IMG/VR virus record: IMGVR_UViG_3300047478_000138
Coordinates: 16,770-80,769 of that record
DNA from: a virus
Length of the DNA: 64,000 bases
Direction: 5' to 3' (one strand)
The notes beneath the pieces were generated by a model. The model ran no database searches and had not been told where the DNA came from. It worked only from the letters and a program-made list of their open reading frames with translations. Below are positions 1-26,721 of this stretch, piece by piece; within the stretch, counting starts at the first letter, position 1, and the number at the start of each line of letters is the position of its first letter. Position numbers and translations under genes: made by a program.

Positions 1-2
1 CA

Positions 3-1655
3 GTGCTTAATGGGGTTACTGTTATGGCTAACCTCAATCTATATGCTGGTGGTGCTGTACAAGAGAGTCATGCGTATAAGCGATTGTACAACATACTTGG
101 CATTAGTGTAGAAGATTTAAAGAAAGAAAAATGGGTAGGTATAGAAGAGTACTACTTATATTTTAATCCTGTGCAAGGCACGTATGATGATATAAGTAAC
201 GAACAATTAACTACGTATTTAGAGTTTCAAGCTCCATTTACTGTAGAAAATGTACCAGTAGTACCACCATTATTACCGGTGTATGATAGGTCTGCATGGT
301 TTACAGCGGAGATAAGCTATGAGCCATTGTTCGTTAATAGCGATGCAAATGTGCTAAGTGATGCTAGTATTATAGATGCAATTAAAGCCGATCCTTATAT
401 AGTTGAATACAGTATTGCAGATGAGCATGTACTTACTGCATTGGCATTGCTGGATCGTAACGAGGTTATATTTGAGAGAGAGTTTAAGGTAACACATAGA
501 AATCTTACAAATGTTACAGCTATAGCACAGACAGATAGAACAAATACTGCTAGCTTTTTGAAAGAGGTTAATATTGAATTTAAGTTTAGACGCAAACCTT
601 TTATATCACAGATTACGTATGATGTGTATTTGAATACTATACGTAGTGCTGTTTATAATTCAGTTAATAGTTTTCCTAACTCAGTTAAATTACAATTGCT
701 AGAAGTATATCATGGTATAGTGCCGTTTATTGACAATGAGATATTATATCAAGGCAGATACCGATTAGATGGGCTACTGGCTATGAAGAGTAAAGAGTTT
801 AATAAGACTATTACTGCCAGGATTAAGACTGGGTATAAGAAAAAGAAAGTTAGTACTTGGAAGAAGCTTGTCACTATAGTCTTAACTATAATAATAATAG
901 TGGTAGCTGTACTAGTCGCTATACCTACAGGTGGGGGTTCTATAGCCTGGGCTAGTGCAGCTATGGTACTAACTGTTGGCTCACTGGCTATGATGGGATT
1001 ATCAATAATACTTGCTAAGAAGGACCCTGCTTGGGCTGCATATATGGGAAAAGCCTCCCAAGTGTTGGGAATAGCTGCAGCTATAGTAGGAATAACTGCT
1101 ATAGTGCAAAGTATGGCACGCGCTGCTGCTGCTGGTGCTACAGCGACGAAAGAAGCGGCTACACAATCACTAATAGCTGCGGGTAAAGAAGTAACAGTAG
1201 AGTCATTAAAAGCAGAGGCATTAGTAGTGGCTGGTAGAATGAGCTTTGTGGAATCACTAAAAGAGATAACACTTGAAAGTATGGGTGATATGCTCATAGA
1301 CTATGTAAAAAACGCAGTCAGTACTACTACTTCCACTAATATGCAGAGTATGCTTAATGCAGCTACTAAAGGATTCCAACTATATGTTAAGCATATAGAC
1401 CCTCCTGCTGATGGACTAGATTATATGACTAGACAGATAGAAGAACAAGAGCAGCAATTAGAGGACTTATCTAGTGCAGGACTAAAAGATAAAATGGACT
1501 ATACATTCAGTAGTCCGTTTTACAATATCTATGATTTCAATGAGATAATGCAGGCAGTTCCACATAGGATGACCCAAGGTAAGATTGATGATACGTTCAA
1601 TAAATACTATGATGGTATAACAAGTAAAGTTACTTATCGAGGATACTTAGGTTAA
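3..1655 (+). CDS. Virion structural/ejection protein with transmembrane helices (5' partial)
   Basis: ORF open from the window edge; hydrophobic segments after KKKKVSTWKK (LVTIVLTIIIIVVAVLVAIP..., two more); no Cys; lies upstream of the vRNAP cluster. Confidence 0.6.
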   Translation: MLNGVTVMANLNLYAGGAVQESHAYKRLYNILGISVEDLKKEKWVGIEEYYLYFNPVQGTYDDISNEQLTTYLEFQAPFTVENVPVVPPLLPVYDRSAWFTAEISYEPLFVNSDANVLSDASIIDAIKADPYIVEYSIADEHVLTALALLDRNEVIFEREFKVTHRNLTNVTAIAQTDRTNTASFLKEVNIEFKFRRKPFISQITYDVYLNTIRSAVYNSVNSFPNSVKLQLLEVYHGIVPFIDNEILYQGRYRLDGLLAMKSKEFNKTITARIKTGYKKKKVSTWKKLVTIVLTIIIIVVAVLVAIPTGGGSIAWASAAMVLTVGSLAMMGLSIILAKKDPAWAAYMGKASQVLGIAAAIVGITAIVQSMARAAAAGATATKEAATQSLIAAGKEVTVESLKAEALVVAGRMSFVESLKEITLESMGDMLIDYVKNAVSTTTSTNMQSMLNAATKGFQLYVKHIDPPADGLDYMTRQIEEQEQQLEDLSSAGLKDKMDYTFSSPFYNIYDFNEIMQAVPHRMTQGKIDDTFNKYYDGITSKVTYRGYLG

Positions 1656-1678
1656 GTTAAAGCTTTATTAGATATAAT
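1652..1678 (+). promoter_or_regulatory. Host sigma70-type promoter
   Basis: TTAAG/TAAAG followed by TATAAT at 1673-1678; AGGAG Shine-Dalgarno before ATG 1721. Confidence 0.6.
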
Positions 1679-1720
1679 GAGTGTATTTAAGTGCACACAA
1701 ATACAAAATAGGAGATTACA

Positions 1721-2224
1721 ATGGCAGTTCAAATGGGATATAAACAAGATGGCACATATGGAATACTAGATGCAGGAGATATAATGGCAACAAATCAATC
1801 CGCATTTGCAACTACTAATCAAATAGGTTCTGTGGCAGTTGAGCCAGTAGGGCCTGCACAAACAGTAGAGTACAATGGTAATATATACGGAATGGATCCA
1901 GGATCAGTGAAATTGATGCAAAATGATGCAGAATTTGAAGGTATGAAAGGAATTCCAGATAGTACTACAGATACCTCTAAAGATCTGCTGGGAATGAATC
2001 CAGATCAGTGGGGTAGTGCTATGAAAATGGGACAAATCGGAATTGGTGCTGGGCAATTAGGGCTAGGATTAGCCAGCTACTTCCAAAATAAAGGATTGGC
2101 TGATAAACAAAAAGAATTGCTTGGGCAACAAATTGAGAGTAATAGGTCCGAAATTGATGCAAGAAAGAACTATAGAAGTGCACTAGATGGCTTCGGTTCA
2201 CAATCACAACCGACAAGGATATAG
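1721..2224 (+). CDS. Putative internal virion (ejection) protein
   Basis: Gly-rich GQIGIGAGQLGLGLASY segment plus coiled C-terminus; no Cys; good RBS. Confidence 0.6.
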   Translation: MAVQMGYKQDGTYGILDAGDIMATNQSAFATTNQIGSVAVEPVGPAQTVEYNGNIYGMDPGSVKLMQNDAEFEGMKGIPDSTTDTSKDLLGMNPDQWGSAMKMGQIGIGAGQLGLGLASYFQNKGLADKQKELLGQQIESNRSEIDARKNYRSALDGFGSQSQPTRI

Positions 2225-2225
2225 T

Positions 2226-3953
2226 ATGGCTAAGTATCAAGTAGACTTCTCTGGAGCTAGAAATATAATTGATCCACTAGAAGGTGTAAGAAACTCACTA
2301 CAGCAAACTAGTACTACACTAGGTCAAATGATTGGTCAAGATGAACAACGTGCAGAGAGATTGCGTGATGAAGCATATAGACGAGATGCACTAGCACTAC
2401 AACAAACTGCTGCTAAAAGAGATGCTGATAAATACAATCAAGAGTTAGCTGATAGAACATTTGCACAAAAGACATTTGCTGCATACAATCAAACTCCAAC
2501 AAGAGATTATTCAGCATTGCCTACACAATTAACTGACACAGAAAAAGGTAAATCAGTAATTAATGATATGTCACTAACATCTGAAGAATTGGCTAATCCA
2601 ACAATGCCATCTGCAATTGCAAAGATGAAAAATCAACAGATACTGTCGGACGTACACGACAAATCTGGGCAAACATTACTTGAATCAGAAAGGTTCAAAG
2701 CTGCAATGGCTTCTACTGCTAAAGGTGCTGATGGAATGATACCATTAAGTATGCAAGAGAAGTTGCTTGGAATGGAGTCTGCAGAACGATCTGCAATGAC
2801 TGCTAAAAGTGAACGTGCTCAAAAAGCTGCTGAATTGCTGTCTAAAGATAGAAGTGAACTGCAAAGAGCTGGATTAAAGGATGCTACAACATTGGCTGCA
2901 GCTGAGATTAGAGCTGCTGAAGGAAAAGGTAGTGGTAATAAAAAGGATAAAAAAGATGATACTCCTAAATGGAAGGACTATGAAACACTTAAAGAAGGGT
3001 TAAATAGCAAATATAGTTTCTGGAAATTTGGGGATGCAGAAAATGTAGCAGCTGTAACTTCCGCAGCAGCTGCTGCAAAAATGAGTCCTGATGAGTTATA
3101 TGGAATAGTTAGTGGGTTAGAAGAAAGAGGATTAGATAATACATTTAATAGAGATAAAGTGCTTACTACAATAGCTGCTAAAAAACCTGTATTGACAGGA
3201 TCTGAGGGCACAGGATCTACTACAAAAACTCCTGGAAAGTTTGCTTCACTAAACCCAATGGCTGGGTATGATGAATTGCTGAAACAGAAAGATGCTGCGT
3301 ATAGACAAGCAGTGGCAAATACAGCTAATACACCCCTAACACAAGCAGATGTACTTGCTGCAAGAAGTGCCAAAGGAGCAACACAGTTAGACGAGTTGAT
3401 TGCTAAACTGGGAAGAACTGCTGGCAAAGCTGAAGTTCAACCGGAAGTTAAGAATACTGCTGTGATGCCTTCACCAGAGGTTAAAAAAGAGGAATCTAAT
3501 ACTGCCAAAAATGAAACTGCAGGCACTAAAAAAGAGGTTAATATTAAGGAATTATTCGCAACTGTACCTGATAAAAAAGAAGCTGATAATAAAACAAAGA
3601 CATTAATAGATGTATTAGGAATACCTCAGACTAATGTGCCTACGGGTCAAACTAGTAATGAATCGGCACAAACTCCATTAGTTAATCCGAGTTGGTCAGA
3701 GAAATCAGCTATGGCTAAACAAATAATGGAAGATCAGAACCTGTCGTGGGAAAAATCATGGGCACAAGTTGAACAAAAAGTACGAGATGCACAAGTAGTT
3801 ACTGGAGTATCTGCTGCGGCTAAAGAATTAGCCCAAAAAGAAGGAATACCATATGAACTAGCTGTGCAGAAACTTGCTGATTTGACAAATATGAGAAATC
3901 CAAGCACTACACTACAAACTACTGCAAGCCCAATAATGAGACAAGGTAGATAA
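2226..3953 (+). CDS. Putative internal virion (ejection) protein
   Basis: Likely start MAKY at 2226 (AAGGA upstream); Ala/Lys/Gln-rich helical protein, no Cys; directly upstream of vRNAP. Confidence 0.6.
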   Translation: MAKYQVDFSGARNIIDPLEGVRNSLQQTSTTLGQMIGQDEQRAERLRDEAYRRDALALQQTAAKRDADKYNQELADRTFAQKTFAAYNQTPTRDYSALPTQLTDTEKGKSVINDMSLTSEELANPTMPSAIAKMKNQQILSDVHDKSGQTLLESERFKAAMASTAKGADGMIPLSMQEKLLGMESAERSAMTAKSERAQKAAELLSKDRSELQRAGLKDATTLAAAEIRAAEGKGSGNKKDKKDDTPKWKDYETLKEGLNSKYSFWKFGDAENVAAVTSAAAAAKMSPDELYGIVSGLEERGLDNTFNRDKVLTTIAAKKPVLTGSEGTGSTTKTPGKFASLNPMAGYDELLKQKDAAYRQAVANTANTPLTQADVLAARSAKGATQLDELIAKLGRTAGKAEVQPEVKNTAVMPSPEVKKEESNTAKNETAGTKKEVNIKELFATVPDKKEADNKTKTLIDVLGIPQTNVPTGQTSNESAQTPLVNPSWSEKSAMAKQIMEDQNLSWEKSWAQVEQKVRDAQVVTGVSAAAKELAQKEGIPYELAVQKLADLTNMRNPSTTLQTTASPIMRQGR

Positions 3954-3969
3954 ATACAGCAAACAAATA

Positions 3970-4008
3970 TTAAGCCAAACACTGCTATAATGAGTAAAAT
4001 ATAGCAGT
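3970..4008 (+). promoter_or_regulatory. Promoter of vRNAP operon with overlapping inverted repeat
   Basis: TTAAG(3970)-N11-TATAAT(3986-3991) with extended -10 TG; ACTGCTATA (3981-3989) / TATAGCAGT (4000-4008) inverted repeat. Confidence 0.6.
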
Positions 4009-4021
4009 ATAAGGTAATATA

Positions 4022-7000
4022 ATGAGCATAGATAACTACTTAATAGACTTAGCTAAAAGTACAGCAACTGATGTGAGTACTGACTTAGCATCCGCACTAA
4101 CCCCTAAAATAGAGCCAGTTGAAGAATCTGCATTCAGTAAAGTTGGTTTGCTACAAGGAAGAACTCAACAAAAACTTGCAAACTTAAGTAGTAAAAGTAC
4201 ATTAGTAGATCCGCTAAAATACAATCCTGTACAAACAAGCGTACAATCAATGACTGTTACAGATGCAGATACGGTAAACCTTAGTGGCACAGGTGCAATG
4301 CGTGTACTAAATGCAAATGCATACGAGACAACTAAACAAGATAAATGGTTCGAAGAGCCACGTAATGTGCTACGTATGGAAAAACAACGAAATGAGTTGG
4401 CAGGTGAGTTGGGTGTTCCTGCGGCACAAGTAACAAATGATATGGTGTTCAAAGTTGGTGAACAACAAAAACAAAATGTACAAAATACTATGCAAGGCAC
4501 GGTAAGAGATAGTGAGGGAAAATTGCTACCATCACTAGTAAGTGCTGATGTAGCAACTAATAGAACTGGATTAGTAGAACCAACAAATAATTATGGTAGG
4601 GACTTGGGAGCTGTAACAAAACTTGGTGGAATGTATAGTACAATAGATGCTGCTGGAAATATAACAGGTGAAAATAATGGTGTAGTAAAATTAGGAGATA
4701 CTCCAAATAAAATGAATATTGACACAGCACTTATAAACTTAAGAAATGCTCTACGTACAAGAGAGTCAAGTGATGACTATAGTTCAGTAAATAAACTGGG
4801 TTATACAGGAGCATACCAATTCGGTGCTGCTAGATTAGCAGACTTAGGAATGGTGAAACCTGGCACTACAAATAAACAATTAAATGAACCTTCCGCATGG
4901 ACTGGTAAGTATGGTGTTGCAAATAAAGAACAATTCCTGCAAAACCCAGAAGTACAAGATGCTGTAATGAATGAACATCTAAAAGATTATGCTAAAAAAT
5001 TGTCCCCAGAAGCTACAAGTATGGAAGATCTAACAGGCAAGATAGCTGCTGCACACTTGCTTGGAGTAGAAGGTGCAAAAGACTTAAATGCAATGGATGC
5101 TAATAAGACAACTGGTAAAGAATACTATGAGTTAGGAAAATTAGCAGGTATGAGTATTGAAGATAGACTGCGTGCTGAGACTAATAAAAAGCATGCGGGT
5201 AGTGCAAGTGAATATGTAGACAGAGTACAAGGTTCATTAGCAAAAGTAGGTGCTGATGCTGCTAATATGATTGAGAAGTTGGTAGGAAAAGAAAATATAG
5301 ATAAATATAACACATTTGCAAGTGATGTTGAGAAGTACTTTGGCGGAGATGGAGATGTTGGGTATATAATAGGTGCAAAAGGTGAGATTAAAGGCACTGA
5401 TAAAAATATACAAGACTTCAGAAACAGAGAAGTTGCTGCTATAGAAATGGGGGTTACACAAGAGACCCTAGACAAGCATAATGCAGCTATGACAAGTGGG
5501 TTAAAAGATTGGGAAAAAGCTGAAAGTGTAACAGATTATATAAAAGTAATGGCTAGAATGGTTCCAGAGGTTCCAGGAATACTTGCAGATAGTGCTGGTG
5601 AGATGGCTGGATTAATGATTCCAGGAGGAATTGGGTTAGTTGCTGCAACAAGAACATCAAATTATGCTGAAGAGTTCAAAAAGAATAATGATAGAGACAT
5701 GACTCCAGGAGAACTGGCTAGAACATTCTTCGGTGAATTGGCTGTACTCGCACCAGAAAAAGTGCTTATAAAGACTGGGGTTGCTGGAGTATTCGGTAAC
5801 TTATCAAAAGGTGGTAGAGCGACTAAGATTGCAACTGCTGCAGGTGGAGAGGGATTACAAGAACTTGCTGAAGGCACTACTGAGAAGTATGCTACTCAAA
5901 AAGTTGGTGATAAAACACTACTTGAAATAGCAACAGATCCAGAACAAACCTTCGGAGCTGCATTGGGAGTAATAAGTGGTGGAGGACTAGCTAGTACTGG
6001 TATAGTGAAAGATGTGGTATCTGCAGTACCTGGCACAGTTAAAAAAGGCATAGGATTAGCAACTGAAATACCGCTGCAAAAAGATACATTAGCAAACACA
6101 AGTGAAGATATAGAAGAGCCAATTGACTTGAAAGCAAAAATGTCAAACATAATGAGTAGAGTAGCTGAAAATGGTGTGATAAGCACAGCAGACATGACAT
6201 CAATTAAAAAGATGGAAGAGCAATTAATATCTACACCAGAAGAGGCACAAGAGCAAAAATTAGCTACAATTAATAGCTTAAAAGATAAATACAAAGCTCA
6301 ATTGCTAGACCCAGAAAATGATACAGTAGTGCTAAAGTCAAAACGTGACTTGATGTATGCAATGCAAGACATTGGTGAAGTAGATGATGCTGTAGATGAA
6401 GTGCTATATGCTAAAGCAGTAAAAGCAGGAATAGTTAAAGATAAAGAAGAGTACATAAAAGTCAAAAAAGACTTTGCAGTAGTTGATGCAGAAGCTAAAA
6501 GTGGACGAATTGGGTACCTAACATTAACCCGAGACTTAGAAAATTTGCTTGATGCAAGTTCACCAAATACTGGTAAAGTAGACAAGTTAGTAAAACGATT
6601 AATAAACTACGAGAAAACTCAGCAAGATTACTTAAATAAAGGCACTGAGCTATACAACAGAGTGCAAAAAGAGATTGAAGCATACAATGCACCTAATGAA
6701 ACAAATCTGCCAAGAAAAACTCCTAAAAGTGCTTCATCAGTAGAGATGGATAATGGATACAAATTCACTGTATATACAGAACTAGATGCTAATGGTAAAG
6801 TGCAGATAAAATCAAATAAAGCACTGCAAGATATACTAGAAGCTAAAAGATTAAACATAGTTGGAATCAAAGAAGGATTACAGAGTGTAGCAGGTAAATT
6901 AGATAGTATAGGGCTTAGTGCAGCTGATACAGGAGTTACCAATAAACCAATAATAAATGCTAAAGGCAACAAATGGTTAGACGCATTTGCTAAAGACTTA

Positions 7001-10000
7001 AAAGGCTCAGAAAGTACTCCAGAAGCAACTCATATATACGCGATTGGCTCAGGTAAGCGTGCAACAGCAATTAAAGAAAGTAACCTAAGCGGAACAAACT
7101 TGACTGACTACACAAAAGATAGTGTAGTATACATGACAATGGATAAAGCAACAACACAAGATGATGTTGATAAACTAAGAAAAGAGTTGTCAAATAAAAA
7201 GAGCGATTTACATAAAGCAATAGAAGCCGCAAAAGAAGCTGGTGCGACAATACGATTAGATGCTACACTAAGACCTAAATCAAAAGATAAGGCAGGCAAT
7301 GCCGTTAAAGATCCACATGCACTAGAAGCACTAAGATTACTGCAAGAAGCATTAACAAACTACGGTAATGAATACAGATCAGTACCAAGTGAAACAAGTA
7401 ACTTCTCGTTCACATTCAAGCCTAAAGCTGAAGCAGAGACCCTAAAAGAATCTGCTAAAAAGGTGAAAGAAGCAAAAGAAGCTGTAACTAAGAAAGTTGA
7501 TGTGGAAGGATACAAAGAATACAGAAACCTTGATAGTGTAAAAGCACAAGAAGCTTATGCAAAAAACTTATGGAATTCAGATGAAGCCATACAAGCTCAA
7601 TACAAAAGTACTGATACTAAAGAAGGATGGGAGAAATTACTAAATAGATTCCATACAATTAGTGCAAATAGTGTGAAAGAAATATCTGCTGAATTAAGTA
7701 AAGCAAATGACTTAGAAAAACAGATTAAAGATACCACTGGATTGACTGGAGTTGATAAAACTCAAGCAGTTATGTTCAATGAAGATATAGAAAATCAAAT
7801 AGCTGAATTAAAAGCTACTATAGATAAAAAGTATGCTAAAAAGGACTATGTAATTGCTGAAACTAATGCAAAAGAAACATCAAAACACTTAGAGTCAATT
7901 GGTGACATAATCCAAGAGATAAAAGAGATTGCACAAAATACAAACTTAGATGAAGAAGCTAAAGCTGCTGCAATACAAGAATTGCTAAAAGATGTTGATG
8001 GAGATGTGGCTAAAACAATACTAGACACAAGTATATCAAAAGGTAAGAAAACAGATACATACAAAAATTACATAGTACCCTTGGATATAAACAACATAGT
8101 AAAAGTTGGTAAAAATACTGTGCTAAGTGTGGCTCCAGTGGAATACTTGTTCAAAAAATTAGCAAATCATCCAGAAATGAGTAGTGTAAGATACATAGAT
8201 GATATGAAAAAAGCATTCGAGAAACTGTTCGTAGTGAATGCTGATAAACCATACGTTAAAGGTGAAGGTGGCACATTAGAATTGCAACTAAGAACAGAAT
8301 CTGCTGTAGGGTTATTCTACAATAAAGCTGGTGAGTTAAATGATACTATGCTGATGGCTGGACAACTTGCGTTAGATGAGTATATGGCTAATAATGGTGA
8401 AATGCTAAATCCCGCATATAAAAGTAGAGAAAACATAGCACAAATGCTTGGTGTTATAGAGTCACAGTTAGGAAAAAATCAAGAAAAACTGCTCCGAGAC
8501 AAAGGTATGTTCTATAAAACAGCGGCTAATAAAGTCGGTAAAGCAGCACTACAAAAGATGGGATATGTGCTTAAAAAAGAGGCTACTGATGTAGAACGCG
8601 AGGCATATGATAGATTAGCTGCTGATGTAGGCAATAGAATACTATTGGCTGGTGTTGCTAATGGAATACTTGAAAGAGATTCAATTTCCTCAAATGAATA
8701 TGGTGAAGCAATTGCTAAAGATTCACAAAAATCGACAGCAAAAAGATCTGAGTTCGTTGATTCAGATGCTGACATAGCATTCATTAAATTCACTAAAAAG
8801 TTTATTGCAAAGAACAAAGATGAGGTTAGTAAAAGAAATGTGAGAGCTGATGTGTACAGAGAAATACACTCATTAATTGGGGATGAAAATTCATTCAGAA
8901 AAATGCCTAGCGAGAATCCAATTAAAACTCCAAGATATAAGAAAGAGCAAGTTGCTAAAGACATTGCCGGAATGCAAATACCTGGAATGGTAAATACAGA
9001 TAAAGATAAAAAGACTCCGGCACAATTCATGGAACACTTAGTAGGTATTAAATGGGAAGTAAATAATGCATTGATAGCTAAAATGCTAAAAGATGTGAAC
9101 ATAGATGTACTAAAAATGCACTTAGGTTATGCATCAGCTGAAGACTTAAATAACATGAGCTTCGATAGTAAAGAATCTGCAGAAGCTAAGAATATGGACA
9201 TAGAGAAAAGTATAGAAGAGTTAAAAATGTTCGTGGATGAAAAAGGTCAAATGAATGCAGAATTGTACTTCGACTGGTTCTACTCAAGTAATGGTAGATA
9301 TATGATGGATAGTAATACATTAAATCCACAAACTGATAAGTTACATAGATTCCTAATACAACCAGCAGAGCATAAATTGAAATACACTGTAAAGGATGGT
9401 AAGTTCACTAAAAAGTCAATGGAATCATTGGTCAACTATGCGATAGCACAAGCATTTGGATTTAAAGTAGATAAAAAGTCTACGGTTAAAATAATGAAAG
9501 CTGGTGAATTGCTAAGAAAAGCTGATCCTAAAGCATTAAGTGAAGTGTTATTCGGAAGTAAAGGTAAAAATGGTGTTAAAGATGTGCATACACACTTCAA
9601 ACTAACAGAGGATGGTACAATAATACTACCAACTACAGAAGGATACAAAGAGAATCCTGCAATGGAGTTCGAACCAGATCACATATCACATACGCTACAA
9701 GCAATTGACATGCTTGAAAAGATTAAAAAAGGCGGAACATTCACATCATCCCTAACAGCAGAGTTCGATGCGTTAACAAGTGGATTCGGATTAAAATTAC
9801 TACAAATACCAATCATAGGTAATGAATTGGTTGGGTTGTGGGATTGGCTAAATAAAGTGGGTGTACTAGAAAAAGGTAAAGCAACTGCAAATAGCATGAA
9901 TGACATACTGGACGGTTCAGGACAAAAGTTCTACGATAGTTACCAAACATTGGCTAAAGAAGTTGCGGTAACTGAAGAAAGTGTACAAGAAGCAATAGCG

Positions 10001-11515
10001 AATAAAGGCAAAAACTACAAAAAACTAAGTGCAAATGTAGTAAATAGCTTGTGGAATGATGCTGGATTAGGTGCGCTTATGCCAAAAGTTAGTGATGATG
10101 GCACGGTAACATCTGCACTACGTTCATTGTTCAAAGACCCGTTTATGACATTCAACTACAGTGCTGGAATAGCATCAATTAAACGTAGCTTGGCTGGTGT
10201 ACTAACAAGTGGGTTAATAGATAGAATAGTTGCCGGAGAAAAAGGTACAGAACAACCTGTTAAAGCATTGATGGGATTGATAACTGCTGATAAAAATAAT
10301 TCATACAAAGTACCTAAAACAATTGAAGAATTCCAACAATTGCTAAAAGAGGTTCCATTAGATAGAATCAAAGTGAAATCCAAGAATTTGCATACATTAG
10401 AAGAGTACTTGAATGAAGTAATGGACTTAACTTACGGACACTCAGTTGAGACAATAATGAAAGAACACTTCCAAGAATTTATGGATGTGCATGATACAGT
10501 TAATAGTGCATTCAAAATCATGTTCACTGCTTGGAAACAAGAGTATGATAAAGAAGTAAAACAAGTGCCAATAGGTAAGTTAAATGATGATAAAGTAAAA
10601 GAGATACTGGACAGATTAAAAGATAAGTTCCCATTAATAAAAAGTCCATTGTCAGACGAGTTGAATGAAGGTGTTGCAATATACAAAAGCTCAAGCTTAA
10701 CACCAAGTGACGAAGAAGTCAGATACATGCCTTCAAGAGCTACTACAGATGCTACAGCAATGAAAAGCATTGGAGTAAAAAATAAAGAGACTGGTGAAGG
10801 AGTAGCTTCAGTTAAAGTGCGTCACATGATTAGAACATTCGAAGCAGCGATAAGTTCAGGTTCAGTTGTGCCAATACACTATATAGACGGTGCGTTGATG
10901 GCTCAATTAAATGGTGAAGCAGTAACAGCAATACATGATGCGATTATGCCTCCACTGAACAAGTCACTAGAAACAATTAAAAAGTACAATCAAGCAATGT
11001 TTGATATATCGAAGTCGTATAGTTGGATAAAAGAAATCAATGAAATGCTCAAACGATTGGATGTAAACACATTGGATAATACTGTAAAAGTAGAGGTTAA
11101 AGAGAAAGCAGATGGTAAAACAACTTATCTAGAGAAAGGGTTAAAAGATGCTGTTGAAGAGATGCAGAGTAAATTAGAAGCATTGACTGAGAGAGTAACA
11201 ACTGCTAGAGAAGATGTGTTTGCTCAAATAGGCGCAATAGGACATATGGTGGGATTACCTGGCAGTATGTGGACAGCTGAGGGAGTTAAGTTAGTTAAAG
11301 TAGTAAATAAGCAAGAAACTAGTACAATTGATGAAGAGAAAGTTATACTTGCTGTGTCAATAATAGCTAAAGAATGGCTTAGTAAGAATGATTCAAGATT
11401 AAGTGCTCCTGTAAAAAATAAAATTAAAACAATAATTACAGAGGCATATGGTAAAGCAGATGGGAAACAAGCACATACTAAGCTTGCTACATTAATAGAA
11501 GAAACTTGTAAATAA
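4022..11515 (+). CDS. Virion-encapsidated single-subunit RNA polymerase (N4 vRNAP-like; N-terminal and catalytic part) with lysozyme-like domain
   Basis: LYFDWFYSSNGRY (DxxGR region), motif A EFDALTSG, motif B RSLFKDPFMTFNYSAG, PIHYIDG, motif C IHDAI; N-terminal RESSDDY...GYTGAYQFG; only Cys is the penultimate residue. Confidence 0.88.
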   Translation: MSIDNYLIDLAKSTATDVSTDLASALTPKIEPVEESAFSKVGLLQGRTQQKLANLSSKSTLVDPLKYNPVQTSVQSMTVTDADTVNLSGTGAMRVLNANAYETTKQDKWFEEPRNVLRMEKQRNELAGELGVPAAQVTNDMVFKVGEQQKQNVQNTMQGTVRDSEGKLLPSLVSADVATNRTGLVEPTNNYGRDLGAVTKLGGMYSTIDAAGNITGENNGVVKLGDTPNKMNIDTALINLRNALRTRESSDDYSSVNKLGYTGAYQFGAARLADLGMVKPGTTNKQLNEPSAWTGKYGVANKEQFLQNPEVQDAVMNEHLKDYAKKLSPEATSMEDLTGKIAAAHLLGVEGAKDLNAMDANKTTGKEYYELGKLAGMSIEDRLRAETNKKHAGSASEYVDRVQGSLAKVGADAANMIEKLVGKENIDKYNTFASDVEKYFGGDGDVGYIIGAKGEIKGTDKNIQDFRNREVAAIEMGVTQETLDKHNAAMTSGLKDWEKAESVTDYIKVMARMVPEVPGILADSAGEMAGLMIPGGIGLVAATRTSNYAEEFKKNNDRDMTPGELARTFFGELAVLAPEKVLIKTGVAGVFGNLSKGGRATKIATAAGGEGLQELAEGTTEKYATQKVGDKTLLEIATDPEQTFGAALGVISGGGLASTGIVKDVVSAVPGTVKKGIGLATEIPLQKDTLANTSEDIEEPIDLKAKMSNIMSRVAENGVISTADMTSIKKMEEQLISTPEEAQEQKLATINSLKDKYKAQLLDPENDTVVLKSKRDLMYAMQDIGEVDDAVDEVLYAKAVKAGIVKDKEEYIKVKKDFAVVDAEAKSGRIGYLTLTRDLENLLDASSPNTGKVDKLVKRLINYEKTQQDYLNKGTELYNRVQKEIEAYNAPNETNLPRKTPKSASSVEMDNGYKFTVYTELDANGKVQIKSNKALQDILEAKRLNIVGIKEGLQSVAGKLDSIGLSAADTGVTNKPIINAKGNKWLDAFAKDLKGSESTPEATHIYAIGSGKRATAIKESNLSGTNLTDYTKDSVVYMTMDKATTQDDVDKLRKELSNKKSDLHKAIEAAKEAGATIRLDATLRPKSKDKAGNAVKDPHALEALRLLQEALTNYGNEYRSVPSETSNFSFTFKPKAEAETLKESAKKVKEAKEAVTKKVDVEGYKEYRNLDSVKAQEAYAKNLWNSDEAIQAQYKSTDTKEGWEKLLNRFHTISANSVKEISAELSKANDLEKQIKDTTGLTGVDKTQAVMFNEDIENQIAELKATIDKKYAKKDYVIAETNAKETSKHLESIGDIIQEIKEIAQNTNLDEEAKAAAIQELLKDVDGDVAKTILDTSISKGKKTDTYKNYIVPLDINNIVKVGKNTVLSVAPVEYLFKKLANHPEMSSVRYIDDMKKAFEKLFVVNADKPYVKGEGGTLELQLRTESAVGLFYNKAGELNDTMLMAGQLALDEYMANNGEMLNPAYKSRENIAQMLGVIESQLGKNQEKLLRDKGMFYKTAANKVGKAALQKMGYVLKKEATDVEREAYDRLAADVGNRILLAGVANGILERDSISSNEYGEAIAKDSQKSTAKRSEFVDSDADIAFIKFTKKFIAKNKDEVSKRNVRADVYREIHSLIGDENSFRKMPSENPIKTPRYKKEQVAKDIAGMQIPGMVNTDKDKKTPAQFMEHLVGIKWEVNNALIAKMLKDVNIDVLKMHLGYASAEDLNNMSFDSKESAEAKNMDIEKSIEELKMFVDEKGQMNAELYFDWFYSSNGRYMMDSNTLNPQTDKLHRFLIQPAEHKLKYTVKDGKFTKKSMESLVNYAIAQAFGFKVDKKSTVKIMKAGELLRKADPKALSEVLFGSKGKNGVKDVHTHFKLTEDGTIILPTTEGYKENPAMEFEPDHISHTLQAIDMLEKIKKGGTFTSSLTAEFDALTSGFGLKLLQIPIIGNELVGLWDWLNKVGVLEKGKATANSMNDILDGSGQKFYDSYQTLAKEVAVTEESVQEAIANKGKNYKKLSANVVNSLWNDAGLGALMPKVSDDGTVTSALRSLFKDPFMTFNYSAGIASIKRSLAGVLTSGLIDRIVAGEKGTEQPVKALMGLITADKNNSYKVPKTIEEFQQLLKEVPLDRIKVKSKNLHTLEEYLNEVMDLTYGHSVETIMKEHFQEFMDVHDTVNSAFKIMFTAWKQEYDKEVKQVPIGKLNDDKVKEILDRLKDKFPLIKSPLSDELNEGVAIYKSSSLTPSDEEVRYMPSRATTDATAMKSIGVKNKETGEGVASVKVRHMIRTFEAAISSGSVVPIHYIDGALMAQLNGEAVTAIHDAIMPPLNKSLETIKKYNQAMFDISKSYSWIKEINEMLKRLDVNTLDNTVKVEVKEKADGKTTYLEKGLKDAVEEMQSKLEALTERVTTAREDVFAQIGAIGHMVGLPGSMWTAEGVKLVKVVNKQETSTIDEEKVILAVSIIAKEWLSKNDSRLSAPVKNKIKTIITEAYGKADGKQAHTKLATLIEETCK

Positions 11516-11525
11516 GGATGTGTAA

Positions 11526-12752
11526 ATGGGATGCATAATTGACGAACTTAAAGAATTGATTGAAGAAGGTACAAAAGAAGTACTGAATAAAACTGCAAAG
11601 ACTCAAATAGAGAGCTTTATAAAAGCATTAGAGGCTGCTAAACCTAAGATTGATCCAGAAACTCTACAACTTAATATGGATTATGATGATAGTAAGATAG
11701 AAGAAGCTAGAGTAGTTAACTCTAATAGAACAGCTCAAATGAATGCTCGAAACGAAAGAATTGAAGAGTCAAAAGATAGTTTAGGTTGGAGTAAATATAA
11801 AGAAAAATTAGAATCTGTAAATGGAAAATATAACAATTACTACGGAGCAATGGAAAAAGTAATAATAGATTTAGTAAATCCAAAAGTAATACCTAATGTA
11901 GTTGGGTTAATGCTAGAAGAAGTATTTAATGGTAAATTTGATGTAATAGTAGCTGGAGATTATGATCCAGATACACATACTGTGCAAATAGCTGGAAAAC
12001 CTAGTCAGTTAGAAGTAGAATTTGCTGTAAAGGAAGGGTTAGAAACTGTTGGATTAGAGTTATTTGAAATGACAGAGGATAACTTAGACCACTTACATCC
12101 ATTACTAAAAGAATTTGTTGATATAAATACTGCTAAAGTACTCACTAAAATAGTGGCTGATATAGAGTCAATTAATGGAGGACATACAGTAACTCATGAA
12201 ATGATTCATGCTGGTGCATTAAGCTTCATGAGAAATAACCCAGAACATGAAGCAACTATACGAATAAATGAACTATATAAAGAAGCTATGGATAATGCAG
12301 ATAACATACGAAGTATGGTTCGTGAAAATGGGGTGTATAGTACATACTGGCAAAAGAATGTAGAAGAATTTCTAGCAGAAGCACTAAGCAATCCAGGATT
12401 AATGTATGCCCTAAGTAACATTAAAACAGTAGGTAAAGAAAAGCTTAGTAAAGGTTTGCTACATGAATTAGTAAAAACATTAATAGAAATGCTTGGCTTA
12501 AATAAAAAAACTGAGGATAACTTGTTAGAATTTACAATGGATGGATTTGCAGCAATAATGGAAGCTCAAGCTGTAAAAGCAAGTGTACCAGTAGATAAAG
12601 AATTGCGCCAATTGGTAAAATCTAGACATGAGGTACAAAACACTAAAGAATCACTTATAGTTACTAAAGCTGAGAAAGAGGTTAAAGCTGGTACAATGTC
12701 AGTAGAAGATATAAAAAAACTAGCTATGGAAGTGGCTAAGGAGTGTAAGTAA
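11526..12752 (+). CDS. vRNAP-associated virion protein with zincin-like (HExxH) domain
   Basis: THEMIH...EEFLAEALSNP; Cys only at residue 3 and the penultimate residue. Confidence 0.7.
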   Translation: MGCIIDELKELIEEGTKEVLNKTAKTQIESFIKALEAAKPKIDPETLQLNMDYDDSKIEEARVVNSNRTAQMNARNERIEESKDSLGWSKYKEKLESVNGKYNNYYGAMEKVIIDLVNPKVIPNVVGLMLEEVFNGKFDVIVAGDYDPDTHTVQIAGKPSQLEVEFAVKEGLETVGLELFEMTEDNLDHLHPLLKEFVDINTAKVLTKIVADIESINGGHTVTHEMIHAGALSFMRNNPEHEATIRINELYKEAMDNADNIRSMVRENGVYSTYWQKNVEEFLAEALSNPGLMYALSNIKTVGKEKLSKGLLHELVKTLIEMLGLNKKTEDNLLEFTMDGFAAIMEAQAVKASVPVDKELRQLVKSRHEVQNTKESLIVTKAEKEVKAGTMSVEDIKKLAMEVAKECK

Positions 12753-15700
12753 TGCCATGTGATATAGATAAAAAAGCTAGATTAATGAGATTGGCTCAAG
12801 AAAAGTTAGAGATGCTAAAAGAATTGCAAGAAGATGGCTATGAAGAGTATTATTCACAAGGCGAGGATATATACTCTGTAGAAACTGAAATAGCTAACAT
12901 GCAAGCTATACTAGAAGAAGATATTGATAACCTAGTAATGAATGTCAGATTAGCTGATACTAATAAATCTGTTAAACGCAGAGACTACTCTACTATAAGA
13001 AGAACTACTAATGGCCATAAATCAGCAATAAATGCGTATAAAGTAGAGGTAAAAGATAATGGAGATTATGTAGTAAGTTATCAAACTGCTAAAACTGCTA
13101 AGGATAAAACAATTACAATCCCTAAAAATGGTACTATGAAAAATGGTACTCAGTACAATGTATATGATATAAAAGACATGCTAGCAAAAAATGATGTGCT
13201 AGGAGCTAAAGCCAGTAAAGAAAAACCAAGCTTCGACAAGTTCACAGAATTAGAAGCTGATATACATGGAAATCCAGAGAAGATGGTAGACTTGCTCAAT
13301 AAAATTAATGAGTTAGATGCATCTCCAGAAACTGAAGAGCATATGGAGTACTTGAGAGGATTGATTAAACAGTTAAATCCAGACTTCATGCGTAAAGCTA
13401 AAACATACATACTAGAAAGTGCGATAGAAAATGGTGGTATGGTAATTGGTAAAGACATAGGTGTAATGGTTGGTAGAAATGCAAAAACAGCAGGCAATCA
13501 ACAGAGTGCAGCTGAAGCATATGCGCATGAAGTAATACATGCGTATACAAAGTTTGCGGTAAAGTTGGCTAAAGATGGTGATGTAGAGGCACGTAAAATA
13601 CTACGTGAATTGCAATATGTAAAGAAAGTTGCAATGGAAAATATGACATGGAAAGACTTTCTGCCAAAAGACAGCATAGACGCAACTAAAGAAGAGGCTG
13701 AAGCTAAAGAAAGATATGACTACATATTCGATGTAAACACAAGAGGATTAAAGGACTGGAAGCCTCACGGACACTCAGAAGATGAGTTCATGGCACATAT
13801 ATTGACTAACCCAATAGTAAGTAAAAAAGCTAAGTTCATAAAATTGAAAGAACAACATAAAGAGATGACATTATGGGAACAGGCAAAAGAACTGTTCGAC
13901 ACAATAACTGGATGGTTGTTGGGAGACTTCAGATTCAAAGATAGAACTAAAAATGTGCAAGAGTTAACACTTGAATTGGTTGGAATGTTTGCAGAGTTCA
14001 ATAATAAAGCAGTGACAGAAGCTCGTAAAAAAGAGAATGTAATTGAGAAGCTAAAAGATCAATTCGATAGTATAGAAGAAGATACATCAGCATGGATAGG
14101 TGAACAGTTAGATAAAATACTCCCGAAAGAGGCTAGAATTGGACCTAAGCCAAGTAATCCATTGGCACAAACAAAATGGTATGCAACCGCATTCGCTAAA
14201 TTGATGCTAACACCAATAGGTAGAAAAGAGTTGTCAAAACTGTTAAAAGCTATGGGAATGCCAATGTATGGGTCAGTGCAATCAATAATCAGAGACTTCG
14301 TAGAATCAGATCAATTAGAGAAAACAATAGATTGGTTAGCACTGCAATCTGATAAAGTAGATCAATCAAAAATGAACATAATAGGCACAGTAAAACAACA
14401 CTTAAAAGACGCATTCACAAAACCGTTAAGTGATTATGAAGAAGAAGCAATAACAAAAGTTCTGCTAGATACAGATTTGCAAAGCATCAGTAAAGAATAT
14501 ACAAACTTGCAGTTAAGAAATATGCTAACAGATGAAGAGACATTGCAAAAAGAAATAAGTAAAGCTAAACATGAGCTAAAAATGCTAGATGAAAAGAATT
14601 ACAACTGGCATACAGATCAAGCAACTGGATTAGGATACTACTTAGCCACTGGTAAAGGACACTTAGCACAAAATACAAGTGTGCTTGGAATTGCTAAAGG
14701 ACACTTAGGTGCAGAGTATAGACGTGGATGGAAGCATAAGAAAGGTGACTTAGAATTGCTGCTAAACAAAGTAAGTACGCTAGTAGCATTGGCATATACA
14801 GGAAAACAAGAGAAAGCTAAGATAGCAGAATTGCTAAAAACTGAGCGTAAGGGAGTAACAACAGTATTAGATACTGCTAGATTCCTAGAGAAAGAAGCTA
14901 AAGAAACAATATTCAAAGATCAAGAGTTATTCATGGTTAAGGGATATACAAAAGAATTGTTCGATGATAGTATGACAATGGAGATAGTACCAGTAAGTAA
15001 ACATGATGAAATGGTAAAAAGAGGATTCAAGAAGATAAAAGATATGGAGTCACATTCATTAGTTAGAACTAAAGAGAAGTATGCAATGTATGTGTCAAAC
15101 GCATTCGCAACAAATGAGTGGCATAGAACAGCAACTAGATTAACTAAGATGCAGACGAAAGGTACTAGCTTGAAAGAGCTATACTATAATGAGCAAGATA
15201 GTTACTCTGAGAAAAGACACTTGATAAACAAGTTAAAAATAGATCAAGCTAGATATGCAATAGTAAAATCCCAGTTAGATGGCACATTCGACATAAACTC
15301 AATTGAGTATGGGTTAATGCCATTGCTAGACGAGTATGGTGAAGTTGTAGACTACAGATACATGATGGAGAAAGATGCTAAGAAAGACTTGCTAAAACAA
15401 GACACAGGAATGAGTAATGTGCTTGGTGCAACTAGAGGTGCAATACTAGATAAGCAAGACACAATAGAGCATAATAAGAATGTGCTGAAGTTGATAAAAG
15501 AGGATGCAAAAGAGAATTACATAGAAGGTAGTGACATAGGTAAAAATAGTATGGCATACATACTACTAACACCGAATAGCATAAACACACACATAAAAGA
15601 TCTGTGGGAAGTGCTTCCAAAAGAGTTCAAGAAAGAGGCAATGAGAAATAGTTACAAAGGATTGGCTGTAAGAGAGGATATGCTGACTAACTACTTCGGA

Positions 15701-16822
15701 TATAGACACTTAAGCATCACAAATGTAAACTGGCTAAAAGCGATAACACCAGGATTCATACTAAACATGGTAAAAATAGCTGAAGCAATGTGGATTGAGT
15801 TCATAAAAATAACTAAAGTGGACATACTAATAAAAATGCCATTTGTAATAGTGGGGAATATAATAAGTAACATAATGTACGGAATTAGTACAGGCAGTGA
15901 TCCGATGGAAATACTAAGAATGTACAGAGAAAGTACGATAGATGTACGAAAGTACTTAAGTAAGCATAGAGAGTTGATTAAGTTAGAAGAAGCCGGCAAG
16001 ATTGGAAAAATTAGCCAACATGATAAGAATAGAATTGAAGTGCTAAAACAAGAGTTGAAAAAAAGTCCGATACATGAGTTATATGAATTGGGAATCTATC
16101 AAGCGATAGTAGAGGATGTGAGTCAAGAGGAATTAAGTAGTTCAAATAAGCTTAAAAAAGAGTACAAAAAAAGAACTTCAGCAATACCTAAAGTCATAAA
16201 AGATGGGATGAATTGGATTTACTTAACAGAAGAAACTCAGTACTACAAAGTAATGACTGAAGTGCTACAGATGTCAGACTTGGTTGCAAGAGATATAGAA
16301 AATCGTAAGTTAAAAAAGGTAATAGAACAACAAGCAAAAGGTGAGAAAAAGATACCAATGTGGTATGTGAATTATGTGGAAAATGCGAAGGATGAAGTAG
16401 CTACGAGACTGCAGGCTACAATGGTGTGGAAGGATAGAAATAGAAAGATGGATGCAGAGGAGAGAGCATACTTCAGGGAAGCTGCTAAGAACTACAGGCT
16501 AAACAATGTGCTAAATGCCTTCGTAAACTACAATAAGCCATCTGGCAGCATGGAAGAATACTTAAATAAGATGGGGTTCATAATGTTTACAAAATATGCG
16601 AAAAGAATACAGAGAGTAATAGCACAAACTGGAGCAAGATATCCAATACGTACATTAATGTTGCTGTTGACAGATGCATATGTGCTCGATATGGATACAA
16701 TACAGGATCAGAGCATATTCACTAAGAGTTGGTACAATTTGACTCCACAGTGGCCATTAGAGCGTATAATGGATGTGTTCGTACCACCAATTATACAACC
16801 TTCGACTTATCGTATAATTTAG
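12752..16822 (+). CDS. vRNAP C-terminal domain as a separate protein, with N-terminal zincin-like domain
   Basis: AHEVIH...EDEFMAHILTNP; C-terminal FVNYNKP...LNKMGFIMFTKY resembles the N4-type vRNAP C-terminus as I recall it; TAATG coupling; only Cys is residue 3. Confidence 0.7.
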   Translation: MPCDIDKKARLMRLAQEKLEMLKELQEDGYEEYYSQGEDIYSVETEIANMQAILEEDIDNLVMNVRLADTNKSVKRRDYSTIRRTTNGHKSAINAYKVEVKDNGDYVVSYQTAKTAKDKTITIPKNGTMKNGTQYNVYDIKDMLAKNDVLGAKASKEKPSFDKFTELEADIHGNPEKMVDLLNKINELDASPETEEHMEYLRGLIKQLNPDFMRKAKTYILESAIENGGMVIGKDIGVMVGRNAKTAGNQQSAAEAYAHEVIHAYTKFAVKLAKDGDVEARKILRELQYVKKVAMENMTWKDFLPKDSIDATKEEAEAKERYDYIFDVNTRGLKDWKPHGHSEDEFMAHILTNPIVSKKAKFIKLKEQHKEMTLWEQAKELFDTITGWLLGDFRFKDRTKNVQELTLELVGMFAEFNNKAVTEARKKENVIEKLKDQFDSIEEDTSAWIGEQLDKILPKEARIGPKPSNPLAQTKWYATAFAKLMLTPIGRKELSKLLKAMGMPMYGSVQSIIRDFVESDQLEKTIDWLALQSDKVDQSKMNIIGTVKQHLKDAFTKPLSDYEEEAITKVLLDTDLQSISKEYTNLQLRNMLTDEETLQKEISKAKHELKMLDEKNYNWHTDQATGLGYYLATGKGHLAQNTSVLGIAKGHLGAEYRRGWKHKKGDLELLLNKVSTLVALAYTGKQEKAKIAELLKTERKGVTTVLDTARFLEKEAKETIFKDQELFMVKGYTKELFDDSMTMEIVPVSKHDEMVKRGFKKIKDMESHSLVRTKEKYAMYVSNAFATNEWHRTATRLTKMQTKGTSLKELYYNEQDSYSEKRHLINKLKIDQARYAIVKSQLDGTFDINSIEYGLMPLLDEYGEVVDYRYMMEKDAKKDLLKQDTGMSNVLGATRGAILDKQDTIEHNKNVLKLIKEDAKENYIEGSDIGKNSMAYILLTPNSINTHIKDLWEVLPKEFKKEAMRNSYKGLAVREDMLTNYFGYRHLSITNVNWLKAITPGFILNMVKIAEAMWIEFIKITKVDILIKMPFVIVGNIISNIMYGISTGSDPMEILRMYRESTIDVRKYLSKHRELIKLEEAGKIGKISQHDKNRIEVLKQELKKSPIHELYELGIYQAIVEDVSQEELSSSNKLKKEYKKRTSAIPKVIKDGMNWIYLTEETQYYKVMTEVLQMSDLVARDIENRKLKKVIEQQAKGEKKIPMWYVNYVENAKDEVATRLQATMVWKDRNRKMDAEERAYFREAAKNYRLNNVLNAFVNYNKPSGSMEEYLNKMGFIMFTKYAKRIQRVIAQTGARYPIRTLMLLLTDAYVLDMDTIQDQSIFTKSWYNLTPQWPLERIMDVFVPPIIQPSTYRII

Positions 16823-16961
16823 AGAGATTAGAAAATACGAAAATGGATAGGATTAGAAGCAATCCTATGCCAATTAAATATGATGCGTACATAGTTAGTA
16901 CAGCAAAGACCACTAGAACAAGTAGCATAAAAGTAATGCCAAAACCTTTGACAATATGCAT
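16791..16961 (-). CDS. Small two-TM membrane protein (not in ORF track)
   Basis: MHIVKGFGITFMLLVLVVFAVLTMYASYLIGIGLLLILSIFVF..., 56 aa; TAATG-coupled to the upstream gene. Confidence 0.6.
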   Translation of the reverse strand: MHIVKGFGITFMLLVLVVFAVLTMYASYLIGIGLLLILSIFVFSNLSKLYDKSKVV

Positions 16962-17245
16962 TAATACCTCCTTGAAAAACGTTGCTTGAGATCCTCTAAA
17001 TCAATGTTAATAGTAGATTCAGGTAACTTAGGAAGATTTGGTGGATTGGCATAAAGATAAATACTGATAACTAAAGATGCAATAGTACCAACAACTAATG
17101 CCCCATAAGACCCGCTAAAGATGATGGTGACCACAATGAGCAATATGAAGTCAAGAGTGGCATCTGGATAACGCTTTCGTTCATACTTGAATAAGATAAA
17201 AATGATGTTAGCAGCTACTGCTAAACCGATTAAAATAAACTCCAT
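16961..17245 (-). CDS. Membrane protein
   Basis: Three hydrophobic segments; coupled to neighbouring genes. Confidence 0.65.
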   Translation of the reverse strand: MEFILIGLAVAANIIFILFKYERKRYPDATLDFILLIVVTIIFSGSYGALVVGTIASLVISIYLYANPPNLPKLPESTINIDLEDLKQRFSRRY

Positions 17246-21314: not shown

Positions 21315-21802
21315 TAGTCCTCCCAAAATTTGTGTGTAATATCTGTATGTGTGAGTAAATCATACATACGCTGATTAGTTGTTCGATTTGTCAATCCACC
21401 CATACTTGATACATAAGGTCCAGTCTTGATATAACGACATACATTAAGTATCTCTGGATGCACATCAGATAACTCAGCTCCTGTGTATAGGCATACTTGC
21501 AAATTCAGTGAGTTAACAAAAGTTGCTAGTTCAATAAATTCCTTGTGATGCTGTTCACCACCAAAAAAGACTACACAAGTTACTGTGTATGCTCCTGTGT
21601 GAGGCGATTGGTACTTATTAAGAAGCTTCAACAATACATCAGAAGTAAGAGGATATCCAACATCAGTTTGTAAGTATGCTGAATGACATCCACTACAACG
21701 GAATGGGCAATTAGATATGCTGATTGCAAAAGATGTCTCTCCTGGGACTTCCTGAAAAGAAAGTGTGTAGCCTGTGTATTTCATGTGGTCCTTAGGTAAC
21801 AA
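21314..21802 (-). CDS. nrdG: Anaerobic RNR activating radical-SAM protein
   Basis: FQEVPGE, CPFRCSGCH, FFGGE, YIKTGPY, TNQR; start may be MKYTG at 21784. Confidence 0.92.
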   Translation of the reverse strand: MLPKDHMKYTGYTLSFQEVPGETSFAISISNCPFRCSGCHSAYLQTDVGYPLTSDVLLKLLNKYQSPHTGAYTVTCVVFFGGEQHHKEFIELATFVNSLNLQVCLYTGAELSDVHPEILNVCRYIKTGPYVSSMGGLTNRTTNQRMYDLLTHTDITHKFWED

Positions 21803-26459: not shown

Positions 26460-26460
26460 G

Positions 26461-26721
26461 CTAGTTAAGTACTCGTTTAAGTGCTGCTGAAGGGCTGAAC
26501 TTAACTGTCTTAGTTGTATACGGATTGCCTGTACCAGGTGCTTTACCAGAACGTGTGACTGGTTTGAAGATACCAAATGTACTGCTAATAGTAACAGAAT
26601 TGCCTGCTGCAAGTTGCTTACCTATAGTAGATTCTAAATGATTCAAGATTGCTGAAGCAGCTTTCTGTGACTTAACTTCTGGGCAATTTGCCAACTCGAT
26701 TAATAGTTCTTTTCTAGTCAT
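26461..26721 (-). CDS. hup: HU-like DNA-binding protein
   Basis: MTRKELL...TFGIFK...GKAPGTG...VKFSPSAALK. Confidence 0.85.
   Translation of the reverse strand: MTRKELLIELANCPEVKSQKAASAILNHLESTIGKQLAAGNSVTISSTFGIFKPVTRSGKAPGTGNPYTTKTVKFSPSAALKRVLN

Follow-up and report, generated by a model that had tools for sequence, protein, structure and literature searches.

The 64,000-nucleotide window examined here, to whose numbering all positions refer, belongs to IMG/VR record IMGVR_UViG_3300047478_000138, a virus contig of 80.8 kb and approximately 76% estimated completeness. Three abutting plus-strand open reading frames (ORFs) of this window, encoding proteins of 2497, 408 and 1356 amino acids (pieces 1, 2 and 3), are by homology an N4-type virion RNA polymerase (vRNAP) in three parts: an N-terminal domain (NTD) together with the RNA polymerase domain (RNAP), a module with an HExxH motif and a C-terminal domain (CTD). 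The three proteins contain four cysteines (Cys) in total, all of them two to three residues from the termini that face each other across the two breaks. The separately made pieces are probably joined into one linear chain by head-to-tail disulfides formed in the virion, a reading that draws on the sequence and on a disulfide seen in cyanophage A4. The pieces would then be threaded as one chain and released by reduction, and a timing of the bond in this phage is proposed below.

Cysteines at the breaks of a split polymerase

The original prediction for this locus had placed a single Cys at the end of piece 1, one at each end of piece 2 and one at the start of piece 3, and had described the free outer ends and the three upstream plus-strand proteins as Cys-free; all of these observations were reproduced by translation (Table 1). 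No internal Cys is found in the 4261 residues of the three pieces or in the 1305 residues encoded upstream of them, so that, apart from the four junction residues, the ejection operon is free of Cys. The Cys content of the other 52 ORFs of the window is 1.61%, from which approximately 69 Cys would be expected in the 4261 residues; the Poisson probability of finding four or fewer in the three pieces together is about 1e-24, and that of the four falling by chance at the facing ends is about 3e-10. The background on which the prediction had drawn, namely that N4 vRNAP is a single Cys-free chain, is also correct, as N4 gp50 (3500 amino acids) contains no Cys.

Conservation of the terminal residues had been proposed as a test, and the outcome was clear: they are strongly selected in split relatives and absent from unsplit ones. 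Exactly one Cys, located one to four residues from the C-terminus, is present in 94 of 98 homologues of piece 1 (26–100% identity over the searched region); one of the remaining four carries the end Cys and one extra, and the other three, comprising two unsplit proteins and one fragment, are Cys-free. Among 35 diverse members with a mean column identity of 20%, the terminal Cys of piece 1 is invariant, as are the catalytic residues. Each of the six full-length homologues of piece 3 has one Cys only, as its third or fourth residue, and homologues of the middle piece with an intact N-terminus have exactly two, at residues 3–5 and at -1 to -5 (where -1 is the last residue).

The facing pair is present at all 45 non-redundant junctions that could be read from DNA with both sides visible. 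These were drawn from IMG/VR and metagenome loci, and contigs L036, L040, L043, L048 and L052, which are apparently frameshifted or fragmentary, were excluded from the census. The upstream Cys occupies position -1 at 12 junctions, -2 at 18, -3 at eight, -4 at four, -5 at two and -6 at one, and the downstream Cys is residue 3 at 36 junctions, residue 4 at seven and residue 5 at two. Overall, the rule is followed by 136 distinct C-side ends and 65 distinct N-side ends; exceptions at L024, L049 and L053 proved only apparent, as these loci conform once the ATG preceded by a Shine–Dalgarno (SD) motif is taken as the start. In 17 of 20 complete split loci there are exactly two Cys per break, and the other three have one extra Cys each.

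The occurrence of Cys also follows the break from one type of junction to another. Three junction classes were encountered, NTD to RNAP, RNAP to the next piece and module to CTD, and all of them carry the Cys pair. The layouts vary among lineages, some having the NTD, RNAP and CTD as separate pieces (L044–L046, L050, L053 and L054), others a fused NTD and RNAP followed by the CTD, and others a fused NTD and RNAP followed by a module and the CTD. According to profile mapping, the breaks fall at about the domain borders of DEV and the two flexible linkers of N4 vRNAP (residues 907–1007 and 2102–2123); the chain encoded in the window is interrupted at about the second of these, the disordered RNAP–CTD linker, and some relatives also at about the first, between NTD and RNAP (PMC13434306). 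Unsplit vRNAPs, on the other hand, contain no Cys at all (N4, LIT1, phi50-12, PT15-A5, L015–L017, P0083 and P0069/L028); in a phylogeny of the polymerase domain, P0083 and P0069/L028 are nested among the split forms. In P0041 and in the polymerase piece of L046, where modules have become fused, the fused joint is without Cys and the next real break has it. Compared with unsplit proteins, the split forms have an extra tail of about 36 residues and an extra head of about 119 residues. As a negative control, the boundary between the gp51-like gene and the vRNAP gene showed no Cys in the window or at approximately 14 such boundaries in relatives.

A particularly close comparison is provided by P0089, which is split and ends in KDC, and P0069, which is unsplit and Cys-free. 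The two are approximately 97% identical over the last 210 or so residues of the polymerase domain and then diverge, as though a module had been exchanged that brought in the break and the Cys at the same time; the pattern indicates recombination at domain borders, as judged from the sequences. P0089 and P0069 (the comparison extends to L028 and L030) also differ in their N-terminal 580 residues and in everything downstream of the motif VNVGHMVG. The middle module itself varies in length from 224 to 876 residues (L047, L032, L034, the window, L038, L022, L002, L012 and L010), and that of P0123 contains two HExxH units. It appears to behave as an exchangeable cassette between two constant connectors.

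A probable disulfide-joined chain and its alternatives

The disulfide has a precedent in cyanophage A4 (Anabaena phage A-4L), in the virion of which cryo-electron microscopy (cryo-EM) revealed the C-terminal helix of gp27 inserted in gp26 and a disulfide between Cys1715 of gp27 and Cys5 of gp26 (PMC12002296, PNAS 2025). In the A-4L genome, gp27 (1717 amino acids) and gp26 (1114 amino acids) are encoded by adjacent genes, and Cys1715 (position -3) and Cys5 are the sole Cys of their respective proteins. The arrangement in the window is the same: products of adjacent ejection genes in which the sole upstream Cys stands a few residues from the C-terminus and faces a sole downstream Cys within the first five residues, piece 2 having one such residue at each end. 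A C-terminal helix ending at the Cys is seen by cryo-EM in A4, and a similar one may be present here, to judge from the periodicity of the sequence. The systems differ in that A4 has one junction and an ordered pentameric body, RNA polymerase being unmentioned in its description, and in that the bond was reported as a stabilizing detail, not as a rule of gene fission or as a threadable, reducible joint (PMC12002296). Of the other A4 ejection proteins, gp28 (L056, 25321–28497, minus strand) has two Cys only, in a CxxC motif at residues 1036 and 1039 near its C-terminus, and gp29 has none; Cys economy thus extends to them as well.

At the junctions, hydrophobic residues recur at -3, -6/-7 and -10/-11 relative to the upstream Cys and at +2, +5/+6 and +9 relative to the downstream one. 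This heptad-like periodicity on both flanks looks like that of amphipathic helices abutting, and stopping at, each Cys, and such helices may dock on their partners. The residues beyond the two Cys of a junction number only two to seven in total.

Separate translation of the pieces, as originally predicted, accords with the presence of an SD and an ATG of its own at each downstream ORF, which makes recoding unlikely. The stop of piece 2 and the start of piece 3 overlap as TAATG, and over the 45 junctions the stop-to-ATG distance ranges from -20 to +16 nucleotides and is mostly -1 or 0. An ATG lies two to four codons before the downstream Cys at every junction, with an SD-like motif (AAGG, AGGA or GGAG) just upstream of it at 37. 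The spacing and the SD together look like those of ordinary coupled translation, by which the pieces would be produced in equal quantity. The K/E-G/D/E codons ahead of the upstream Cys often contain the downstream SD (12738–12752 in the window, and most junctions in L002–L054), so that the last residues of the upstream protein have a double role, as a connector between proteins and, through their codons, as a ribosome-binding site.

The course of events proposed for this phage begins with a vRNAP that is divided, at the flexible linkers between its domains, into three proteins whose translation is coupled. These would be made reduced in the cytoplasm, in equal amounts as the coupling signals suggest, would dock end to end through their terminal helices and would be packed into the capsid. 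After the particle has left the cell and entered oxic water, each facing Cys pair would oxidize to an interchain disulfide, as in the A4 structure, restoring a linear chain in which NTD–RNAP, the HExxH module and the CTD are connected in this order by two S–S links. The remaining ejection proteins would be kept Cys-free so that only the intended links form. Upon infection, the chain would be ejected N-terminus first, as in the N4 model, the later pieces following because they are covalently tied to the first, and the reducing cytoplasm of the host could then open the links. A broader and more tentative proposal is that Cys-tipped helices may be a general modular connector: wherever a giant ejected protein is broken or a cargo module is inserted, a disulfide clasp would restore the chain, continuity of the chain would be mechanically required for ejection and cytoplasmic reduction would act as the release switch.

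Several points weigh against a disulfide-joined chain. In this phage, as in every split vRNAP, the bond is read from sequence and analogy, and the A4 precedent is an analogy because homology of gp26 and gp27 to the vRNAP pieces was not detectable. The genome encodes both a class I and an anaerobic class III ribonucleotide reductase (RNR), a metagenome-assembled genome of Sulfuricurvum is the source of one relative and the habitats of some relatives are possibly reducing; the water around some virions may therefore remain reducing and keep disulfides from forming. On the other hand, the contig itself was found in lake, river, wastewater and groundwater metagenomes, and this mostly oxic freshwater habitat counts in favour of the disulfide. 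No phage thiol oxidase or thioredoxin was significant in the genome (the Erv1/ALR search gave no match, as was also the case for the control genomes, that for thioredoxin gave none and that for glutaredoxin gave a sub-threshold match only), and oxidation would thus have to be spontaneous. The paired flanks do not complement one another in net charge (rho -0.19, p 0.20). In addition, a few loci (P0092, L051, L054 and L041) have one extra Cys, and the middle piece of L041 contains an in-frame stop without a neighbouring Cys. This middle piece (L041, 8420–8700) starts with MSC and meets an in-frame TAA after about 84 codons, beyond which the frame goes on; the stop may reflect an error of sequencing within an A-rich run or a recent nonsense mutation, or it may truly depart from the rule.

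The disulfides might instead be a structural lock that acts inside the capsid only, keeping the pieces together and in equal numbers or stabilizing an ordered internal body as in A4, with each piece leaving independently and no continuous chain required for ejection. The authors of the A4 study indeed see the bond as stabilizing a 'mortise-and-tenon' pre-ejectosome (PMC12002296), and tying the polymerase piece to the CTD could aid its retention, the CTD of N4 being the encapsidation domain according to a statement cited within PMC3821669. However, packaging in the reducing cytoplasm precedes the formation of disulfides, so that co-packaging must already rest on non-covalent docking. Moreover, the placement of Cys at the extreme ends, with such short stubs beyond them, is what a threadable linear joint would require and goes beyond the demands of a lock, and the published picture of N4 vRNAP is that of beads on a string, loosely folded, and not of an ordered body (PMC13434306). 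A lock without a joint is for these reasons considered unlikely.

That the facing Cys bind a metal, for example in a zinc site with the His residues of HExxH or as a 'cysteine switch' on a zincin-like domain, or serve some other thiol chemistry without forming a disulfide, is appreciably less probable. An HExxH domain does lie 220–260 residues downstream of both junctions in the window, and a zinc-binding motif has been predicted in DEV gp71-C (PMC11445570). Yet the same Cys pair occurs in six lineages split between NTD and RNAP, in five of which neither flanking piece has an HExxH motif, and unsplit vRNAPs retain HExxH with no Cys. The flanks of the Cys lack conserved His residues or other ligands, and the equivalent pair in A4 was seen as a disulfide (PMC12002296).

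Two further explanations are very improbable. According to the first, the split is only apparent and a single full-length product arises either by read-through of the stops or by translational bypassing, the Cys codons being take-off and landing sites. Cys codons do stand on both sides of each stop, and at 12 of the 45 junctions the first of them is immediately followed by the stop, like the take-off codon of T4 gene 60. At the other 33, one to five sense codons intervene, every downstream ORF has its ATG, SD-like motifs are frequent and the gaps are typical of coupled initiation; the reading frames differ between junctions, so that read-through cannot be general. A mechanism of the gene 60 type was accordingly rejected, also in view of the two polypeptides of predicted sizes shown by virions of the related phage AD45 (PMC3821669).

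According to the second, the Cys would be a functionless by-product of chance, of nucleotide constraint in the ribosome-binding region (TGT between SD and ATG) or of a lost intein. The codons immediately ahead of the C-terminal Cys do often contain the SD, and TGT accounts for 78 of the 90 junction codons (TGC for the other 12), compared with 68% in the other genes of the window. The downstream Cys, however, lies inside the next ORF, beyond the reach of an SD-spacer explanation, both codons are used, the positions vary (-1 to -6 and 3 to 5) while the flanks diverge to 20–30% identity, and other coupled boundaries of the same operon are without Cys. A split intein with trans-splicing, or the relic of one, was rejected because only zero to five residues follow the C-terminal Cys and only Met and one to three residues precede the N-terminal one, leaving no room for an N-intein of about 100 residues or for a C-intein.

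Identity of the pieces and surrounding genes

The original prediction had taken the three proteins for a split N4-type vRNAP, an assignment that is borne out by PHROG and profile matches. Residues 1105–2411 of piece 1 match phrog_2206, annotated as virion RNA polymerase (E 5.8e-56). Across 35 diverse aligned homologues, the invariant residues of piece 1 comprise DALTSG (with Asp1916), Arg2034, Lys2038, Met2042 and Tyr2046, and His2305-Asp2306-Ala2307, which are taken here to be motifs A, B and C of T7-like RNA polymerases; piece 1 thus contains a T7-like single-subunit polymerase domain with intact catalytic motifs. The full-length profile of piece 1 (A2) gave no sequence match in the PDB.

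Piece 2 is, on sequence evidence, a second, stand-alone HExxH module, with HEMIH at residues 224–228 and the conserved motif YW..NV.EF.AEALSNP. Its profile gave no PDB sequence match, the protein had no match in the phage collection or in the single-protein scan of IMG/VR, and a nucleotide match was likewise absent from the phage collection. No significant Pfam family was found for pieces 1 and 2. Piece 3 matches the C-terminal third of phrog_2206 (profile positions 2272–3378, E 1.9e-144), and its profile (A1) matches residues 2476–3378 of solved N4 vRNAP chains (9pnr and others; E 4e-37). Its homology to the N4 CTD includes the C1 subdomain, whose HExxH motif is invariant in homologues and corresponds in piece 3 to HEVIH at residues 259–263 (PMC13434306). 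Instead of the single polypeptide of about 3000–3500 residues of the Schitoviridae gp50 family, the locus therefore holds a split form in three ORFs.

Table 1. Features of the split vRNAP locus and its operon (window positions)
Feature	Position	Strand	Basis or remark
Virion/ejection-operon protein at the position of N4 gp53	3..1655	+	No Cys; cut by the window edge (582 amino acids in the full contig); weak PHROG match only
167-residue protein, counterpart of N4 gp52 (150 amino acids, ejection protein, no Cys)	1721..2224	+	No Cys; by position only
588-residue protein, positional counterpart of N4 gp51 / DEV gp72 (ejection protein)	2187..3953	+	No Cys
Piece 1, 2497 amino acids, N-terminal domain and T7-like RNA polymerase domain	4022..11515	+	phrog_2206, invariant motifs
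Lysozyme-like domain, piece 1 residues 239–391	4736..5194	+	phrog_27932 'baseplate hub subunit and tail lysozyme', E 1.8e-31
Cys2496 of piece 1, TGT	11507..11509	+	Sole Cys of piece 1 (..EETCK, stop), second residue from the C-terminus
Shine–Dalgarno AAGGA	11514..11518	+	7 nucleotides before the piece 2 ATG; same signal at most junctions of relatives
Piece 2, 408 amino acids, HExxH module like N4 CTD-C1, Cys connector at both ends	11526..12752	+	HEMIH
Cys3 of piece 2, TGC	11532..11534	+	MGC..
Shine–Dalgarno AAGGAG	12738..12743	+	Within the Lys-Glu codons just before Cys407, 8 nucleotides before the piece 3 ATG
Cys407 of piece 2, TGT	12744..12746	+	..KECK, stop; second residue from the C-terminus; invariant in alignment A3
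Piece 3, 1356 amino acids, CTD: HExxH C1 part and large helical C2 part	12752..16822	+	phrog_2206, match to N4 structure
Cys3 of piece 3, TGT	12758..12760	+	MPC..; sole Cys of piece 3

Upstream of the three pieces the gene order is that of N4, gp53-gp52-gp51-gp50. The coding strand of the ejection operon (1–17000) is strongly enriched in purines compared with the rest of the window, with an AT skew of up to +0.35 and a GC skew of about +0.2. Further along, a class III (anaerobic) RNR and a class I RNR large subunit with an ATP cone are encoded on the minus strand (19482–21326 and 24237–26612). The NrdD match (PF13597, E 1.4e-157) stops at position 534 of the 562-position profile, and the glycyl-radical end may be missing or separate; the combination of class III and class I enzymes points to a facultative host. 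Two Cys-rich plus-strand ORFs (28774–29730 and 56371–57240) lie amid replication genes of the minus strand. One of them matches HNH endonucleases (PF14279 and PF01844) and the other has a sub-threshold match to DUF723, and both are probably mobile homing-endonuclease genes.

Relation to known systems and significance

The locus has in common with N4 gp50 and other Schitoviridae vRNAPs (DEV gp71 and LIT1) a homologous polymerase and CTD, including the HExxH C1 part, as well as the placement of the vRNAP after Cys-free ejection proteins in the operon; it differs from these single, Cys-free polypeptides in being split, with a Cys pair at each break. Suppression of Cys in the Schitoviridae ejection operon has been described, the suggested reason being passage through a periplasm that contains disulfide-forming enzymes (PMC11445570), and is confirmed by the vRNAPs examined here. 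End-proximal Cys of gp72/gp51 homologues, dismissed as errors in that study, may belong to real split genes with the same clasp. The account of N4 vRNAP as beads on a string with flexible linkers that is ejected NTD first (PMC13434306, 2026) mentions neither cysteines nor split genes.

The closest cultured relatives are Alteromonas phages AltAD45-P1 to P4, with 31% identity to piece 3. Their vRNAP is also split (ORF127 and ORF126), in two pieces and not three, and the facing ends, KHCKQ before the stop and MTIC, each hold the sole Cys of their protein after the likely start codon. The stop codon was re-sequenced by the authors, who observed two polypeptides of 270 and 175 kDa on gels for which reducing or non-reducing conditions are unstated (PMC3821669). 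Packaging in the virion and ejection into the host are predicted for the pieces described here, the gel bands of this relative being the indirect support. From the 'two cysteins' of ORF127 the same authors concluded that the protein is not injected, without remarking on their position at the junction (PMC3821669).

The literature searches made here brought up no paper stating a rule for split vRNAPs. The statement of the original prediction that no description was known holds for a general rule and for a redox-cleavable chain; it does not hold for the bond itself, as the disulfide between A4 gp27 and gp26 has been published (PMC12002296). The chemistry has one published structural example, in an unrelated phage. 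New are the proposed use of such a clasp wherever the N4-type polymerase is divided, the strictness with which Cys accompany a break and the implication that the chain has to be continuous.

Outside the phages, functional parallels are found in di-chain AB toxins, such as diphtheria toxin, and in the capsids of papillomaviruses and polyomaviruses, in which an interchain disulfide retains a cargo chain while it passes a narrow channel, or keeps a particle intact outside the cell, and is opened by the reducing cytosol. The toxins differ in that one polypeptide is nicked by a protease, in contrast to separate genes whose products would be joined, and the likeness is one of function and not of homology.

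How a polymerase of 3500 residues leaves an N4-type capsid through a channel of about 35 Å is an open question (PMC13434306). If every natural break must be covalently re-closed, then the protein must travel as one thread. The reading of Cys by the AD45 authors as a sign of non-injection would be reversed by this finding, and the absence of Cys from ejection proteins would acquire a positive reason, namely that only the intended clasp may form. The arrangement points, in addition, to a simple natural means of stringing together the products of separate cargo genes for delivery into bacteria.

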